A DNA stretch of 64,000 nt, taken from positions 36,952,001 through 37,016,000 of the forward strand of contig OZ024742.1 of the NCBI GenBank assembly GCA_964016885.1, read 5' to 3'. This stretch comes from Eledone cirrhosa (Eukaryota). The position numbers and the translations under genes were made by a program. Each line of letters opens with the position of its first letter. The first letter of the stretch is position 1. Shown piece by piece: positions 10,181 to 57,765 of the stretch. The notes under the pieces are model-generated. The model had not been told where the DNA came from and made no database searches. It was given only the letters and a program-made list of their open reading frames with translations.

Positions 10181-11250
10181 TTAATTAGGTTTATAATATT
10201 TAAATGTTTTTTTTAGTTTATGATTACACGATATAATTAATTCCTGTCGTTTATTTAATAGGATATCCTTAGATTTCATTATTTCAAATAGTTCTTGGGA
10301 ACATAATCTACATTCATTTCTATTATTTTGATAAGGGGTGGCTCTTTTGAGCACACTCCAGGTCAAATCATATTCTATATTCTTATTTTTATAACTATTG
10401 ATTTTTTCTGCTAGAGATGTTGTATTAGCCAGTGCGGCATTTTTAAAACTATGCTTGTGGGTATTAAATCTTGTCTTAAAATTGTTAGAGGTAGCTCCTA
10501 TATATGAGCAAATAGAATCTTTAGTTTTAACATTACATTTATAGACTATGTTGTTAACAAGACAATTCCCTTTTAATGGGCAGTTTGCTTTGTTTCTACA
10601 GTTACAACCTTTCGTTAATTCTGTATTTGAGGAGATATTATGGTTAATTTGATGTACTGGTGGTATACTTATGGTTTTCTTACATTTATATGCATTATAG
10701 GCACTTATATTTTGTTTTATGTTATTTGTTGTTGAGTATGAGAATTTAACTGTAGACCTATTTAAGATTTGATGGTATTTGTGGTTTGGCGGGAAGTTTT
10801 TCTCTAGGATATAAAAAAATTTTTTAGCAATATTATCCTTAATTTGTAAATTAAATGGAGCATTATACCAAGTAACCCGTCTATTACGGTTTCTATGTTG
10901 TTTATTATTTTTATTATTTTTATAGGTTGTATCGTGATGTTTACTAGGAGGATTAATGTTAATGATCTCACCACAACCATTTTTAGTTATATTTGTAGAT
11001 TTAGGTGTTTTATCTTTTTTATTAGGAGTTTTATTATTAATATTTATTAGAGTTGTATGATGAGTAGTTTTTTGAGAGTTACTATATTTTATATTAGAAG
11101 ATTTGGTATTTTGGGGTATAGTGTGGGTGGCATTTAGGTGTGTACTTTTCATTTGGTGTTTGTTGGTAATATTAGGTTGTATGCTTTTAGTATTTTTAGT
11201 AGAAGGTATATATTCTAATCTATTTTTGTGGCCACTTCTATCTAGAGCTT
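10181..11250 (-). pseudogene. Partial PLE ORF (linker + GIY-YIG endonuclease) in the inverted arm
   Basis: Protein identical to the C-terminal part of ORF 12117-14048 from ALDRSGHK onward; the listed N-terminal MNKTMKQF... is read-through from the junction. Confidence 0.9.
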
Positions 11251-11605
11251 TTGAACTTTTTTTGTTTAATATAAGGAACTGTTTCATTGTTTTATTCATT
11301 ATTTGTTTAATATTTTATCTTGACTCTGTATACCGTTTATCTTTCACCGAAAGTGATTTTTCATTACATCTCTTCTTTCCATGATATCCGGAATACATTG
11401 AGTTCTTCATACGGATTGGACACTACCGTAAACTCTTGGTAGATTTATCTACATAATTTTGCTCCTATTTTCACGGAAATATTCGTATTTTTGTACTGTA
11501 TGTGTGTATTAATTTTATATTTATGTATATACATATATATGTATGATTTTGTAAACCCATATACATTTAGTTGAGCTCTTTCAATTGTCCATCATCCATA
11601 TCACA

Positions 11606-14048
11606 ATGGAAAAACAATATTTGGGAACCTCTTTAAAAAACATACCAATACCTTCTAAGGATGACTTCTTACTCCTTATGATTCAAAAAACTAATAATTT
11701 TATCAGAAGGGTTAGATGGAGAGCCTACCACTTCGATAAAAAATCTAAACAAGCAGATCGGAAATATATGTATGATTTCAATACTTACAAGAATCCACCA
11801 CACAACTTTTTACTTGAAGACTTCGAGAAAGACCTTTTTAATTTAATTAAACACCTCAAATTTAAAAAGTATAAATCCGTCTTTCAAAAGGACCTTGATT
11901 CTACCCTATTGGACCTAAAAAAGTCTAAAAAAATTCATGTCCACTCGGACAAAACTGGTAACTTGTATCATATGGATATTGAACATTATAATGAGTTCAT
12001 ATATAAAGAACTCAGAAAAAATTATAAAAAATCTAATAATGCGTCACTCACCAACATCAACAACAAAACACACAACATAGTAAAAAAAACTAAACATTGA
12101 AGATAGAACTGAACCTTTGGCATTGAAAAGACCACACTTCAACCTGAAGGATCATAAATCAAACTTTAACTCAAATCCTTCTATTAGACTTATATGTCCC
12201 TCCAAATCAGATATTGGAATAATTAGCAAAAAAATTTTGGATAGAGTCATCCCACAAATAAGAAAACACGTTATTTTACCACTCTGGGAAAACACCTCCC
12301 AGGTAATTAACTGGTTTAAAAATATTAGATGTAAATCTTCTGCTTCATTTCTACAATTTGATATAGATAATTACTATTCTTCTATATCACCTATACTCCT
12401 GAACAAAGCATTGATATTTGCTAAAAATAGATCTAACTTAACTTTGGATGACATTAATATTATTACACATGCTAGACTAACACTTATTGAATTTCAGAAT
12501 GAATACTGGACCAGAAACACATATAGTAATCTATTTGATATTACTATGGGTTCAAGCGATTCCGCCCAAATTACTGATCTTGTGGGCCTCTTTCTCCTTT
12601 TCAACATAAATGCCTCCTTTCCCCACCTCAAAGGTGGTTTATATCGTGATGACTGTCTTCTTCTTTCTAACAACCTTAGCCTTTCAGAAATTGAAAAAAA
12701 CAAAAAACATATTAGAACTTTCCTTAAAGACTATTATAATCTTCATATTACTTTTGAAAAAACAAGTAAAGTAGTAAATTTCCTAGATATAACTTTAGAT
12801 TTAGCTACGGGTATCTACCAACCTTACCATAAACCAAACCAAAACTTACATTACATACACTCACAATCTAATCACCCTAAATCTATCCTTAAAAACCTTG
12901 CATATAATATATCACTTAGAATTTCTAACCTTTCTTCTAACCAAGATGTATTTGATAAAAATGCGACCTTCTATAACGAAGCTCTAGATAGAAGTGGCCA
13001 CAAAAATAGATTAGAATATATACCTTCTACTAAAAATACTAAAAGCATACAACCTAATATTACCAACAAACACCAAATGAAAAGTACACACCTAAATGCC
13101 ACCCACACTATACCCCAAAATACCAAATCTTCTAATATAAAATATAGTAACTCTCAAAAAACTACTCATCATACAACTCTAATAAATATTAATAATAAAA
13201 CTCCTAATAAAAAAGATAAAACACCTAAATCTACAAATATAACTAAAAATGGTTGTGGTGAGATCATTAACATTAATCCTCCTAGTAAACATCACGATAC
13301 AACCTATAAAAATAATAAAAATAATAAACAACATAGAAACCGTAATAGACGGGTTACTTGGTATAATGCTCCATTTAATTTACAAATTAAGGATAATATT
13401 GCTAAAAAATTTTTTTATATCCTAGAGAAAAACTTCCCGCCAAACCACAAATACCATCAAATCTTAAATAGGTCTACAGTTAAATTCTCATACTCAACAA
13501 CAAATAACATAAAACAAAATATAAGTGCCTATAATGCATATAAATGTAAGAAAACCATAAGTATACCACCAGTACATCAAATTAACCATAATATCTCCTC
13601 AAATACAGAATTAACGAAAGGTTGTAACTGTAGAAACAAAGCAAACTGCCCATTAAAAGGGAATTGTCTTGTTAACAACATAGTCTATAAATGTAATGTT
13701 AAAACTAAAGATTCTATTTGCTCATATATAGGAGCTACCTCTAACAATTTTAAGACAAGATTTAATACCCACAAGCATAGTTTTAAAAATGCCGCACTGG
13801 CTAATACAACATCTCTAGCAGAAAAAATCAATAGTTATAAAAATAAGAATATAGAATATGATTTGACCTGGAGTGTGCTCAAAAGAGCCACCCCTTATCA
13901 AAATAATAGAAATGAATGTAGATTATGTTCCCAAGAACTATTTGAAATAATGAAATCTAAGGATATCCTATTAAATAAACGACAGGAATTAATTATATCG
14001 TGTAATCATAAACTAAAAAAAACATTTAAATATTATAAACCTAATTAA
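11606..14048 (+). CDS. PLE reverse transcriptase / GIY-YIG endonuclease (~813 aa after removing one A from the A8 run at 12082-12089)
   Basis: SLKNIPIPS N-terminus, LKDHK..RLICP, FDIDNYYSSI, ITMGS, LYRDD, VNFLDITLDL, SNHP, CNCxxxxxCPLxGxC, IVY..YIG..FKTR..H, CRLC; frame-corrected join reads VKKLNIEDRTEPLALKRPHF. Confidence 0.88.
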
Positions 14049-50568: not shown

Positions 50569-51999
50569 TCATTTGTGTTTGTACTTGTGGTTAGTTAAAC
50601 AACCTTTGTACAAGAAAGTTTTACCACATATATCACAGCTGTATGACTTCTCACCTACGTGTGTGCGCTTGTGATAAGCTAAGTTACCACTTAGAGAGAA
50701 TGCTTTACCACAGATACCACAACGGTATGGTTTCACACCTGTGTGTACACGTTTATGATAAAATAAGTTACCACTTTGAGAGAATGTTTTACCACAGATA
50801 TCACAGTGGTATGGTTTGACTCCAGTGTGGACACGTTTGTGAGAAGATAGCTCACAACTTACAGTAAACGTTTTACCACAGATATCACAGCAGTGTGGCT
50901 TATACCCTGTATGTATACGTTTGTGACGAGTTAACACACTACTTGTAGAGAAATATTTACCACAGACATCACAATGGTATGGTTTCTCACCTGTGTGCAT
51001 ACGTCGGTGGTTCGTCAAGTCACCATTTGCAGAAAAAGTTTTACCACAGATATCACAATGGTATGGTTTAATTCCTAAATGTGTCTTTGTATGACTATAT
51101 AAATTACTACTGTTAATGAATGTCTTGCCACAGAATTCACAATGGTATGATTTCTCACCAGTATGTAACCGACTGTGGAAAATTAAACTACTTTTATACG
51201 AGAATGCTTTACTACAGATATCACATGGGTATGGTTTCTCCCCTGTGTGTATCCGTTTGTGCGTAGATAAACTACTGACATAGGAGAATGTTTTACCACA
51301 GATATCACAGCGGTATGGTTTCTCACCAGTATGCACACGTTTGTGACAAGATAGGCCAGAACTTGCAAGAAACGATTTACCACAGACATCACAATGGTGT
51401 GGCCTATCTCCTGTGTGAATACGTCTGTGACGACTTAACAATCCACTTTGAGAGAATGCTTTACCGCAAACATCACAGTGGTATGGTTTCTCTCCCGTGT
51501 GAATACGTTTGTGGCTAGATAAAGAACAATTTGCAGTAAATTCTTTACCACAAATATCACATTGATATGGTTTAACTCCTGAATGTTTTATTTTGTGATT
51601 ATATAAACTACCAGATTGAGCAAATGTTTTACCACAGATATCACAGTGGAAAGGCTCTTCCCCAGTGTGAATACGTTTGTGAGAAGATAATGAGCTGCTG
51701 ATAGTGAAGGTTTTACCACAGATATCACAATGAAATGGTTTAACTTCTGCATGTTTCCTTTTATGACTATATAAATTACTATTCTTCGAGAATGTTTTAC
51801 CACAGATGTCACAATGGTATGGTTTCTCACCTGTATGAGTACGTTTGTGATCAATAAGGTGGTTATTTTGTTGGAAAGTCTTACCACAGATGTCACAGTG
51901 GTATGGTCTTTTCTTTGCACGTCTCTGTGTTTGATGAGATAAGGCAATAGTTTTACACTTACTCTTACCCTCATTCTCACACACCTCCCCTTCTTCCAT
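50569..51999 (-). CDS. C2H2 zinc-finger protein, 16 tandem fingers, 476 aa, single coding exon
   Basis: 16 CxxC-x12-HxxxH units with TGEKPY-type linkers; candidate splice acceptor tctttatttCAG upstream (exon start 52207). Confidence 0.93.
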   Translation of the reverse strand: MEEGEVCENEGKSKCKTIALSHQTQRRAKKRPYHCDICGKTFQQNNHLIDHKRTHTGEKPYHCDICGKTFSKNSNLYSHKRKHAEVKPFHCDICGKTFTISSSLSSHKRIHTGEEPFHCDICGKTFAQSGSLYNHKIKHSGVKPYQCDICGKEFTANCSLSSHKRIHTGEKPYHCDVCGKAFSQSGLLSRHRRIHTGDRPHHCDVCGKSFLASSGLSCHKRVHTGEKPYRCDICGKTFSYVSSLSTHKRIHTGEKPYPCDICSKAFSYKSSLIFHSRLHTGEKSYHCEFCGKTFINSSNLYSHTKTHLGIKPYHCDICGKTFSANGDLTNHRRMHTGEKPYHCDVCGKYFSTSSVLTRHKRIHTGYKPHCCDICGKTFTVSCELSSHKRVHTGVKPYHCDICGKTFSQSGNLFYHKRVHTGVKPYRCGICGKAFSLSGNLAYHKRTHVGEKSYSCDICGKTFLYKGCLTNHKYKHK

Positions 52000-52444
52000 A
52001 TCAAACCTTATTCACAATATACAAATTATTTCTGTATCACAACAATGAAATATATTTCAAATTAATCTGAAGTCAGGAAATATTTCACAGTTATTTAAAC
52101 AAAATGACATGTATTTAGTAACAATGTCATTCTTTAGTCCTTAGGATGTGAGAAATTTCTTGCTGTATCTTGGCTCAGAAATTCATGTCTCAATATCACC
52201 AGATGTCCTGAAATAAAGACAATATAAGATATAAAGATAATAAAATGTCAATATGGTGATTATTAAAAAGATTTCTTTACCATATGAAAGACACTGCATA
52301 TCATTTTCAAATAATCAGGAAAATAGAGGGATTTCATAACATAACTAATTTTCTAATTCTTAAGTTGGTGTTTGGAACATAAAACTATGATGGAAGGCTT
52401 TACTCCTTTTATTGTTATATTTGAGGAGGTCATATCTGTTTTAA

Positions 52445-56200: not shown

Positions 56201-56281
56201 CGGTAACAGATGTGTAAAATAAGAACCTTACTAAAATATCAGGTTATGCTCCTCGTAAGAGACTTGGCTATTCCAGTGTCT

Positions 56282-57323
56282 GGCGATATCCAATTTTAGC
56301 GGCCTAAATGCCGTTTACTTGCTGTAGTTGCTGCTTACTTCAATGTATGAGGCTATTCCAACAAATTTACATTCCCCCTTTTTTAGCCGTTAAAAGAAAT
56401 ATAGATTTATTTATTGTTTTTTTTTTTGCGATTTATTTGCCACTGGGGCATAGATTTCTTTATTTGCCCCTTTTTTGTTTGTTTGTTTTTTTTTGCGATT
56501 TATTAGCCTTTTGAGGTCACACACACCCCCGTAGAAAGTGTGCGACCTTTCTGACAGGGAGCACAGAGAGGGGGGGGGGGGGGCGTTCCCTTCTTCTCTT
56601 ACCTGTACAAGCCGATATAGAGAGATGGCCCACTTACACGTGCCATTATTGCTACTTTCACCCATCTTTCATGGAATTGGCTGGGACTGAGTGCCTTTTT
56701 CTCCACCTTGATCCTTCTTTCGAAGTTGTATCGGAAGAAGATGACCATTTGTTGGCCGGCGACATATCCCAACAGTTTCCTCGTTGCAAACGCATCTGGG
56801 ACATTTCTTTTCCAAGGGGTTTCCCTCCCGGAATCCGTGTTTGTAGAGCCTTTCCCGAACGGGCAGGGCCCCTCGGTATAATAGTAAGTATTAGTGGTTG
56901 TAATAAAAATGCAATCAAAATGTAATAAATACATTCACTGATTTCTTTCCTTATATTATCAACAGAAGTTGGTATGTCACCCAAAGTTCGCTTTGTATGT
57001 TCCCGAATAGCAGTGAATTTTGATAAAACTGTTTCTAATTCCTTCTCCACAGTAAGACAAATATCCATGTGTAGTTGAAGAGGATAAGTATGAAAGAACA
57101 GTCATTTAAATTTACAGATGGACAGATGTGGTGTTTGGCAGGGTTTGAGATATATAGAAAAATAATTATTTACAGAAAAAGAAAATAATAATAAAGAATT
57201 ATTATAATTTTTTAAAAGATTTATATCTTTTTGGACTACACATGGATATTTGTTGGAATAGCCTCATACATTGAAGTAAGCAGCAAGTAAGCGGCATTTA
57301 GGCCGCTAAAATTGGATATCGCC
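56282..57323. mobile_element. Non-autonomous TIR transposon (Merlin-like termini) carrying captured gene fragments
   Basis: TIRs 56282-56366 and 57248-57323 starting GGCGATATCC; 8-bp TSD cagtgtct (56274-56281, 57324-57331). Confidence 0.88.
56933..57068 (-). pseudogene. RMND5: Captured first coding exon of an RMND5/GID2-like E3 ligase gene
   Basis: MDICLTVEKELETVLSKFTAIREHTKRTLGDI..IRKEI resembles my recollection of the RMND5A N-terminus (MDQCVTVERELEKVLHKF); followed by a GT donor. Confidence 0.65.
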
Positions 57324-57765
57324 CAGTGTCTTATTCTCGCTACCACTAGGCCTTACTGAAGTTTTAGGTGATGCTAGTGATCGTGCTTGACTATTCCAGC
57401 ACCTTAGTCTTGTAGCAATGAAAAGTATTTGGTTGGAGCGTGCGAAGAGTTGGTTTGTGTTTTGTATTTTCAATATATATTTTATTAAATAACATTACAA
57501 ATGGGAGTGAAAATATAAACACATGATATATATGCAAAGCATATAAATAAATTTACAGTAGAATAACATAACAAATAGGTTTAAAATATATACATAAATA
57601 ACACTACAAATGCTTATTTAACATTATAAATTGCTCGTGATTCTTTCAGAAGGATATATTCTGATAATGTTGCAATATTCAAGAAAATGTAATGGAAGTG
57701 GTGAACAACCGGGCCAACACCAGAGCGAAAGACTGCAGCGTCGCGAGGAGTACCGGGCAATCTCT

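Follow-up and report, generated by a model that had tools for sequence, protein, structure and literature searches.

The window analysed here, a stretch of 64,000 nucleotides from Eledone cirrhosa, holds a 1,042-bp element (56282-57323) with GG-ended terminal inverted repeats (TIRs) and an 8-bp target site duplication (TSD). By its ends, its TSD and a cognate transposase this element is a Merlin, and by its cargo it is a multicopy Pack-TIR. Very probably, it represents a non-autonomous Merlin with exon 1 of the host gene RMND5 and the end of a LINE, likely being the deletion product of a 1.7-kb palindrome and likely having been moved by the transposase of its family. This architecture is well supported. 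The importance of the case lies in the amplification of a host exon by a Merlin to ~127 copies, and in one genome holding the parent gene, a transposase-bearing founder, intermediates, palindromes and deletion products. Because all stages are found in one genome, the capture, the extension of the TIRs and the copying from arm to arm can be traced step by step.

When the TIRs were aligned (56282-56372 against 57242-57323), both ends showed GGCGATATCCAATTTTAGCGG, and the inverted ends begin with GGCGATATCC. One stretch of 43 nt (98% identity) and another of 48 nt (94%) make up the arms, with a 9-nt indel between them, and the TSD CAGTGTCT is exact on both sides. All internal stretches map to cargo or to element ends, and no transposase is present in this copy. 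A previous sequence-only reading had described precisely these GG-ended TIRs, the 8-bp TSD and the lack of a transposase, and the alignment of the ends and the exact TSD agree with it. The minus-strand leader, ATG, 45 codons plus one nucleotide, GT dinucleotide and AT-rich intron that it had listed were likewise found. The features of the element are given in Table 1. In the case of the ~23-bp linker, no significant match was obtained in the 40-kb parent region.

Table 1. Features of the element and its target site (positions in the 64,000-nt window)
Feature	Position	Strand	Remarks
Left TSD copy (8 bp)	56274..56281	+	CAGTGTCT
TIR, GG end	56282..56377	+	by structure, the founder's 3' (post-transposase) end
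Linker, ~23 bp	56378..56400	-	between TIR and LINE tail; probably Merlin
LINE 3' terminus	56401..56508	-	tandemly repeated, reaching the natural LINE end (6 free LINE copies aligned)
LINE 3' UTR	56509..56600	-	shorter than in founder
ORF2 C-terminal piece (zf-RVT region)	56596..56881	-	L1-clade, presumably Tx1-like; frameshifted, internally deleted
RMND5 intron 1 start	56882..56932	-	~50 nt; GT donor 56932-56931
RMND5 exon 1, coding part	56933..57068	-	ATG 57068; 45 codons + 1 nt
RMND5 5' leader	57069..57207	-	16-nt deletion in window copy; parent leader about 160 nt
Merlin DNA remnant, ~30 bp	57208..57237	-	follows the transposase stop in founder
Mirror-arm stump	57235..57253	+	RMND5 start, inverted copy; ATTTGT at 57248-57253
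Right TIR, CC end	57248..57323	+	
Right TSD copy (8 bp)	57324..57331	+	

The window contains dense (TA)n as well as RTE-like LINEs. At 50569-52011 (+), 4.3 kb from the element, lies one long single-exon frame of tandem C2H2 zinc fingers with 480 aa from stop to stop. These three features would suit an octopus-like cephalopod. Further away, frames with RT/GIY-YIG at 11555-14048 (+) and 10181-11314 (-), which we take to be Penelope-like, have their 3' part repeated in inverted orientation.

RMND5 is a conserved subunit of the GID/CTLH E3 ligase. The 44-aa exon peptide gave a weak match to human RMND5A (E 0.15), and in a homologue search with it among longer proteins none of five candidates passed. 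Pfam on three frames of the window returned nothing relevant, including no zf-RVT match. The identity of the exon 1 piece is therefore based on the parent gene and not on this weak peptide match. In the genome, 115 of 142 candidates match the exon peptide. One match, at 87%, is the parent RMND5 (C5:79536336); exons encoding the CTLH domain follow on its strand, 9-11 kb farther downstream. Parent exon 2 corresponds to positions 50-95 of human RMND5A (E 1.2e-12), and stop-free frames downstream of exon 1 were read by eye as the remaining exons to the C-terminal end. Between element and parent, identity is 95.8% over 191 nt and 89.9% over 348 nt, a span that takes in the leader, exon 1 and ~50 nt of adjoining intron, and the phase-1 intron after exon 1 is the same in both. 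Six family-wide substitutions, all non-synonymous, separate the exon from the parent. The window copy shows an extra change of its last exon base (G>T) and a 184-bp deletion that took out the original intron/LINE junction. Judged by these matches, the first carried fragment is the RMND5 leader, exon 1 and intron start, and an intact parent gene lies on another chromosome, C5. The proposed capture of RMND5 exon 1 with its exon-intron boundary was thus borne out, as the parental gene could be located apart from the element and matched through leader, exon and intron start. That the window copy is itself the real RMND5 exon 1 is ruled out, since the intact gene sits on C5.

In the case of the second fragment, the alignments identify the 3' end of an L1-clade LINE and not a host exon. 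A longer version of the cargo (locus L049) scores as zf-RVT (E 1.8e-9), and a neighbour at ~80% identity, in L046, has a frame of 941 aa that contains both RVT_1 and zf-RVT. When aligned to six free LINE copies, the cargo was seen to comprise the C-terminal part of ORF2, shortened by a 177-bp deletion, followed by the 3' UTR and the natural LINE end GGCAAATAAA, which is repeated with A-tracts. In the window copy, AATAAA signals and A-tracts lie at 56508-56495 and 56441-56428. Altogether, RT and C-terminal zf-RVT in ORF2, a 3' UTR and an AATAAA terminus place this LINE in the L1 clade; the label ‘Tx1-like’ is our assumption. A search with the part unique to the long form, in which 40 of 2,634 candidates were scored, hit cargo in 3 cases (98-100%) and free LINEs in 37 (89-91%). 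The LINE piece is 85-86% identical to free LINE copies over ~650 nt (3 copies tested). The sequence-only reading had seen here a second, unrelated exon-like fragment ending in CAG/GTAAGA, with the element possibly chimeric from two genes. The GC-richer open segment and the motif (56605-56596) are present as described. However, the segment is the end of LINE ORF2 with 3' UTR, and the apparent donor CAG/GTAAGAG is the ORF2 stop region, which reads TAG in free copies and, after mutation, TAC in the cargo.

This bears on the idea that a small Pack element took up exons from two host genes and can splice them into a chimeric gene of a new kind, which we consider hardly tenable. An ATG, a GT donor and the donor-like CAG/GTAAGA do exist, and in many copies a 147-aa frame starts in the leader, crosses the intron and reaches into the LINE piece. 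However, that piece is ORF2 and 3' UTR of a LINE, its reading is frameshifted in the window copy, and no acceptor lies between it and the intron; the suggested chimera is thereby largely refuted. The substitution pattern also speaks against a new gene: the parent differs from the family majority by 6 non-synonymous and 0 synonymous changes (chance 0.23 under neutrality), and over 59 gap-free copies the exon variants are 23 non-synonymous, 2 stop and 13 synonymous. The pN/pS among copies is 0.54, uncorrected for transitions; these figures do not demonstrate a constrained protein. As synonymous variants are somewhat in excess among the copies, neutrality is not proven. Most likely, the cargo is a neutral passenger of the Merlin.

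The assignment to Merlin is sound because the cognate transposase (PF12762) has the same TIRs. Two elements, L060 (2,894 bp, TSD matching at 7/8) and L049 (3.26 kb), hold transposase and cargo together. This founder form measures 2.9-3.3 kb, has TIRs of about 125 bp and is arranged in one sense as TIR, transposase, ~100 bp, RMND5 piece, LINE piece, ~25 bp and TIR. In its cargo, the RMND5 part (leader, exon 1 and ~85 nt of intron) is followed directly by the terminal ~670 nt of the LINE. The transposase is PF12762 (DDE_Tnp_IS1595) with an E of 4.3e-11, over the cut-off; of its 93 homologues 92 are annotated as PF12762, and the nearest named ones are snail proteins at 44-46%. The same TIRs and TSDs occur in the transposase-bearing L060, L061, L062 and L067, and the earlier designation as Merlin-like holds. 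By ends, TSD and this transposase, the window element belongs to the Merlin superfamily.

Derivatives of the founder form a structural series. In L059, L062, L067 and L071 the transposase is kept and the 5' end is replaced by an inverted copy of the cargo-bearing 3' end. In L065/L066 (G000:C11, about 53.551-53.555 Mb) the transposase is mirrored in both arms, each with the same stop after 239 aa; this shared stop is another sign of arm-to-arm identity. The spacers of derivatives with inverted cargo range from 3.2 kb, where the transposase is kept, to 0.17 kb, where it is lost. The order of the series is inferred from shared junctions: mirrored forms would derive from the founder, transposase-less forms from these, and deleted forms would come last.

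Concerning an autonomous partner, the search for elements with these TIRs yielded transposase-bearing relatives and none of full length among the copies scored. The longest frame from a start codon is 283 aa in 12 of the 14 loci with the start motif, and open frames of 321 and 338 aa are found in sister Merlin families (137 scored of 756 candidates). The family's own transposase is apparently dead in this assembly, and the palindromes would have been mobilised by it in trans. A sister family (L076:937-2797, L077:1038-2925) has about 70% DNA identity, a different TIR (GGCGATCCTTGG), an 8-bp TSD and no cargo, and the 3' end of its transposase is copied in inverted orientation beside the left TIR. 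The genome has many further Merlin families, at 34-53% protein identity, and in about a dozen of their copies a frame of 324-350 aa is open.

With the window element as query, 159 matches were obtained in the 3.0-Gb genome from the best 40 scored of 2,461 candidates. The best of them match element bases 1-972 at 93-97%, mostly with an inverted match to 1-805 alongside; most full copies match 1-972 and then 805-1 inverted and are thus palindromes of ~1.73 kb. A TIR 20-mer occurs exactly 158 times genome-wide (reversed control 0). A 24-mer at the RMND5 ATG has 128 matches with up to one mismatch, the parent included by inspection (control 0), which gives ~127 exon copies outside the parent. Among 100 listed matches of this 24-mer are 31 head-to-head pairs and 38 unpaired copies; 20 of the 31 pairs are spaced by 167-190 bp and the rest by 241-3,158 bp. 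The commonest paired derivative is the 1.7-kb palindrome, with arms of ~785 bp that each hold the RMND5 exon and the LINE piece, and a spacer of 163-170 bp (10 copies). Having long arms and a short spacer and moving as a unit, these palindromes are foldback-like, and the window copy keeps a stump only.

To describe the target sites, left and right ends were paired in the fetched loci, leaving out those of the parent, the sister family and the free LINEs. An 8-bp TSD with at most one mismatch was present in 30 of 40 pairings, 23 of them exact, and a TSD of 7 or 9 bp in 0 of 40; the pairings without an 8-bp match include cross-pairings between neighbouring or nested elements. Dispersed copies carry distinct 8-bp TSDs, i.e. 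they re-transposed after the capture.

Several other arrangements could be identified. Firstly, L047 and L050-L053 form a separate subfamily of ~1.0 kb, in which the RMND5/LINE piece is flipped between short mirrored ends. Secondly, a rearranged family copy of this flipped type lies 11 kb from the window copy (L042:4560-5174, G000:C3:37019560), with its right TIR absent from the stretch read. In L084:1230-2324, the cargo has the long LINE piece, is split by inserted repeats and shows no TIRs nearby. Nesting was seen at L063:578-1195, where a family MITE is inserted into the RMND5 exon of another copy. L044, L061 and L075 each show two elements within 1-4 kb, implying possibly local hopping.

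The window copy corresponds to a 1.7-kb palindrome minus ~690 bp of the second arm. The sequence-only reading had missed this likely descent, by deletion, from a high-copy palindromic family with a transposase-bearing founder. At the break, the 6-bp motif ATTTGT is common to arm and TIR, and the ~690 bp would have been lost by microhomology-mediated deletion. At 14 of 776 columns the long arm of the window copy departs from the majority of the arms, and 10 palindromes are ~1% from this majority. Arms diverge by 1.4% within the same element versus 2.05% between different elements (10 of 11 palindromes tried; L014 was dropped, its anchor not being found). Of the variants in 695 arm columns, 61 are singletons and 20 doubletons; for 15 of the doubletons, the two carriers are the arms of a single element, versus 5% expected (binomial p 8e-16, counting linked sites as independent). 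Because private variants are shared within one element, this points to conversion or re-copying between the arms of a palindrome, and part of the homogenisation could be an artefact of assembly or polishing of palindromes. Among the palindromes compared no column is diagnostic of an arm, so that a single foldback origin is no more than a possibility.

Regarding the capture itself, the RMND5/LINE join would have arisen once, by template switching at short microhomology. The motif GACAT at the intron/LINE junction is present in both donors, and the 5' cargo junction has a short A-rich overlap. We lean slightly towards a capture at the DNA level or in two steps; a template switch on DNA would fit the models for Pack-TIRs (PMC8277862). 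Somewhat less probable is an RNA route, in which the LINE reverse transcriptase switched from the LINE 3' end onto RMND5 pre-mRNA; in a variant, it copied a read-through transcript of an RMND5 allele whose intron contained a LINE. In either case, the chimeric cDNA would have entered a Merlin near its 3' end and been amplified by it. Such a route is consistent with the one sense shared by both pieces, with the GACAT microhomology, and with a cargo that runs from the 5' leader exactly to the natural LINE end, including AATAAA, A-tracts and repeated termini. Human sense chimeras of first exons and LINE-1 are also on record, as far as the text of PMC11838501 describes them. However, no identifiable duplication flanks the cargo, and the junction lies ~85 nt inside the intron and not at the donor, the position of the join in 6 of 17 human cases in that text (PMC11838501). 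Furthermore, the LINE piece, with its 177-bp internal deletion and ~14% distance from free copies, resembles an older dead DNA copy. The LINE is also absent at that spot in the parent intron of this genome and in a parent contig of run X5, which carries another organism label; a resident LINE was looked for there and an extinct allele is possible.

No empty (cargo-free) copy of this Merlin subfamily was found, and because of this the capture junctions and any duplication around the cargo are unreadable. L061, considered as an empty ancestor, still has ~40 nt of the RMND5 leader together with the end of the LINE and is a deletion derivative. ATAAATCT as a TSD around the cargo was rejected by eye, its 3' copy belonging to the LINE terminus. 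As a whole, the claim of gene capture at the DNA level in an animal stands as regards the Pack-type element; the DNA level is not established, as the retained intron also fits a pre-mRNA template.

The contigs of run X5 include the Merlin/RMND5 junction, pieces of the transposase and further deletion joints. The junction contig has a depth of 250-266 versus 16-19 for the parent-gene contigs of the same run. The 184- and 41-bp deletion joints were not seen in the X5 contigs, which do not prove absence. As far as contigs can tell, the capture likely predates the split of the two lineages, and the palindromic burst may be lineage-specific. Run X6 (organism C, with a more diverged RMND5) also gave near-identical cargo contigs on L060 and L038 at a depth of about 3. 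This depth is like that of the single-copy gene in X6. The contigs may represent carry-over, a mixed sample, transfer or a true copy, and X6 is therefore not counted as evidence.

In run X1, a parent-type contig leaves exon 1 at the donor and continues into the start of exon 2. Because of this spliced RMND5 junction, X1, which is not on record as RNA, is likely a transcriptome; no RNA run is listed among the sequencing runs that contain the sequence. The same run has a contig of the exon in which each of the six cargo alleles is present, and shows the two deletion joints of the derived form, 184 and 41 bp (with 29 letters on the short side). Since these cargo-type contigs share X1 with the spliced junction, transcription of the cargo is likely but unproven. 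Runs X1-X4 are possibly of the species or sample of the assembly, so they are not independent support, and A>G counts in X1 lack meaning without DNA of the same individual. X1 also holds a 742-nt contig over L038:7900-8214, upstream of the RMND5 leader, i.e. a long 5' UTR or a divergent transcript.

In the predicted fold of a full palindrome, 94.5% of the bases are paired, and the helices reach 210, 166 and 110 bp without interruption; for the window copy, only helices of 36-38 bp are predicted, from its TIRs. Perfect matches of the cargo to parent exon 1 are 39, 22 and 21 nt long. Any effect on the host would run through such predicted double-stranded RNA. One could imagine that the palindromes are domesticated and kept as regulators, their predicted hairpin transcripts giving small or edited RNA that tunes RMND5 and the LINE family; we consider this unlikely. 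The predicted pairing of full copies, the matches of up to 39 nt and the presence in X1 of both the spliced parent junction and a cargo-type contig of the exon, which bears all six substitutions and the derived junctions, would fit such a role. However, the X1 contigs represent presence only, with DNA carry-over from a ~127-copy repeat as a possible source, the copies are young (about 1% from the majority) and accounted for by selfish spread, and the window copy itself reaches only the short helices. Equally doubtful is the related idea that a selfish Merlin may now regulate its donor RMND5 via predicted long double-stranded RNA, with self-homogenising hairpins giving rise to small RNAs or editing. 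As six fixed substitutions separate cargo from parent, the family also lends itself to a clean test of whether gene fragments captured in an animal give rise to double-stranded RNA directed at their donor.

Regarding known systems, the Pack-MULEs of plants belong to the Mutator superfamily and typically have a 9-bp TSD. Our element differs from them in being a Merlin in an animal with an 8-bp TSD. The likeness lies in gene fragments carried between TIRs and moved in trans, as described for plant Pack-MULEs in the text of PMC6431247.

Host sequence between TIR ends with an identifiable parent, which defines a Pack-TIR, was found here (RMND5, C5). In the main text of Tan et al. 2021 (PMC8277862), animal Pack-TIRs are almost all single-copy and mostly hAT or Tc1/mariner; four (1.4%) are multicopy, among them the frog Pack-hAT-N8_XT with three copies and Ssk-FB4 with few loci, and ‘Merlin’ occurs 0 times. 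Like those described there, our family holds the 5' part of a host gene with intron in a TIR transposon, has an identifiable parent, shows microhomology at breakpoints and re-transposed with distinct TSDs (PMC8277862). Unlike them, it is a Merlin family with ~127 exon copies, its founder kept the transposase, its cargo includes a LINE tail, and this cargo became an inverted repeat (PMC8277862).

The Merlin superfamily (IS1016/IS1595-related) has, according to the text of Lopes et al. 2021 (PMC8101967), GG termini, an 8- or 9-bp TSD, a DDE_Tnp_IS1595 transposase and TIRs of 24-462 bp. GG termini, the 8-bp TSD and the DDE_Tnp_IS1595 transposase are shared by our family, and TIRs of 82-91 bp in the window copy and about 125 bp in the founder lie inside that range. 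The derived arms of ~785 bp lie beyond it and, unlike in the Merlins of that text (PMC8101967), hold host and LINE DNA. No prior report of a gene-capturing Merlin was found in the open-access literature searched, judged by titles, abstracts and passages. One paper found in this search lists two recently active Merlin families, and the string ‘captur’ occurs 0 times in it (PMC13282606).

Human sense mRNA/LINE-1 chimeras, as presented in PMC11838501, mostly consist of a near full-length L1 attached at a splice site, and they are free-standing insertions with TSDs. The cargo resembles these chimeras in that the first exon of a gene lies 5' of a LINE in the same sense and ends with the LINE tail; it differs by its short LINE end, a join inside the intron and amplification by a DNA transposon (PMC11838501).

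In the case of Galileo, the TIRs extend by recruiting internal sequence and are longest in non-autonomous copies, and conversion between the repeats was proposed, as the text of Marzo et al. 2013 describes (PMC3573991). Our family is like Galileo/Foldback in all three aspects, namely TIR extension from internal sequence, the longest TIRs in non-autonomous copies and a proposed conversion between repeats (PMC3573991). Unlike here, Galileo belongs to the P superfamily and recruited its own internal DNA, whereas a captured host exon was recruited in a Merlin (PMC3573991). The private variants shared between the arms of one element provide direct sequence support for the conversion between long TIRs that was proposed for Galileo.
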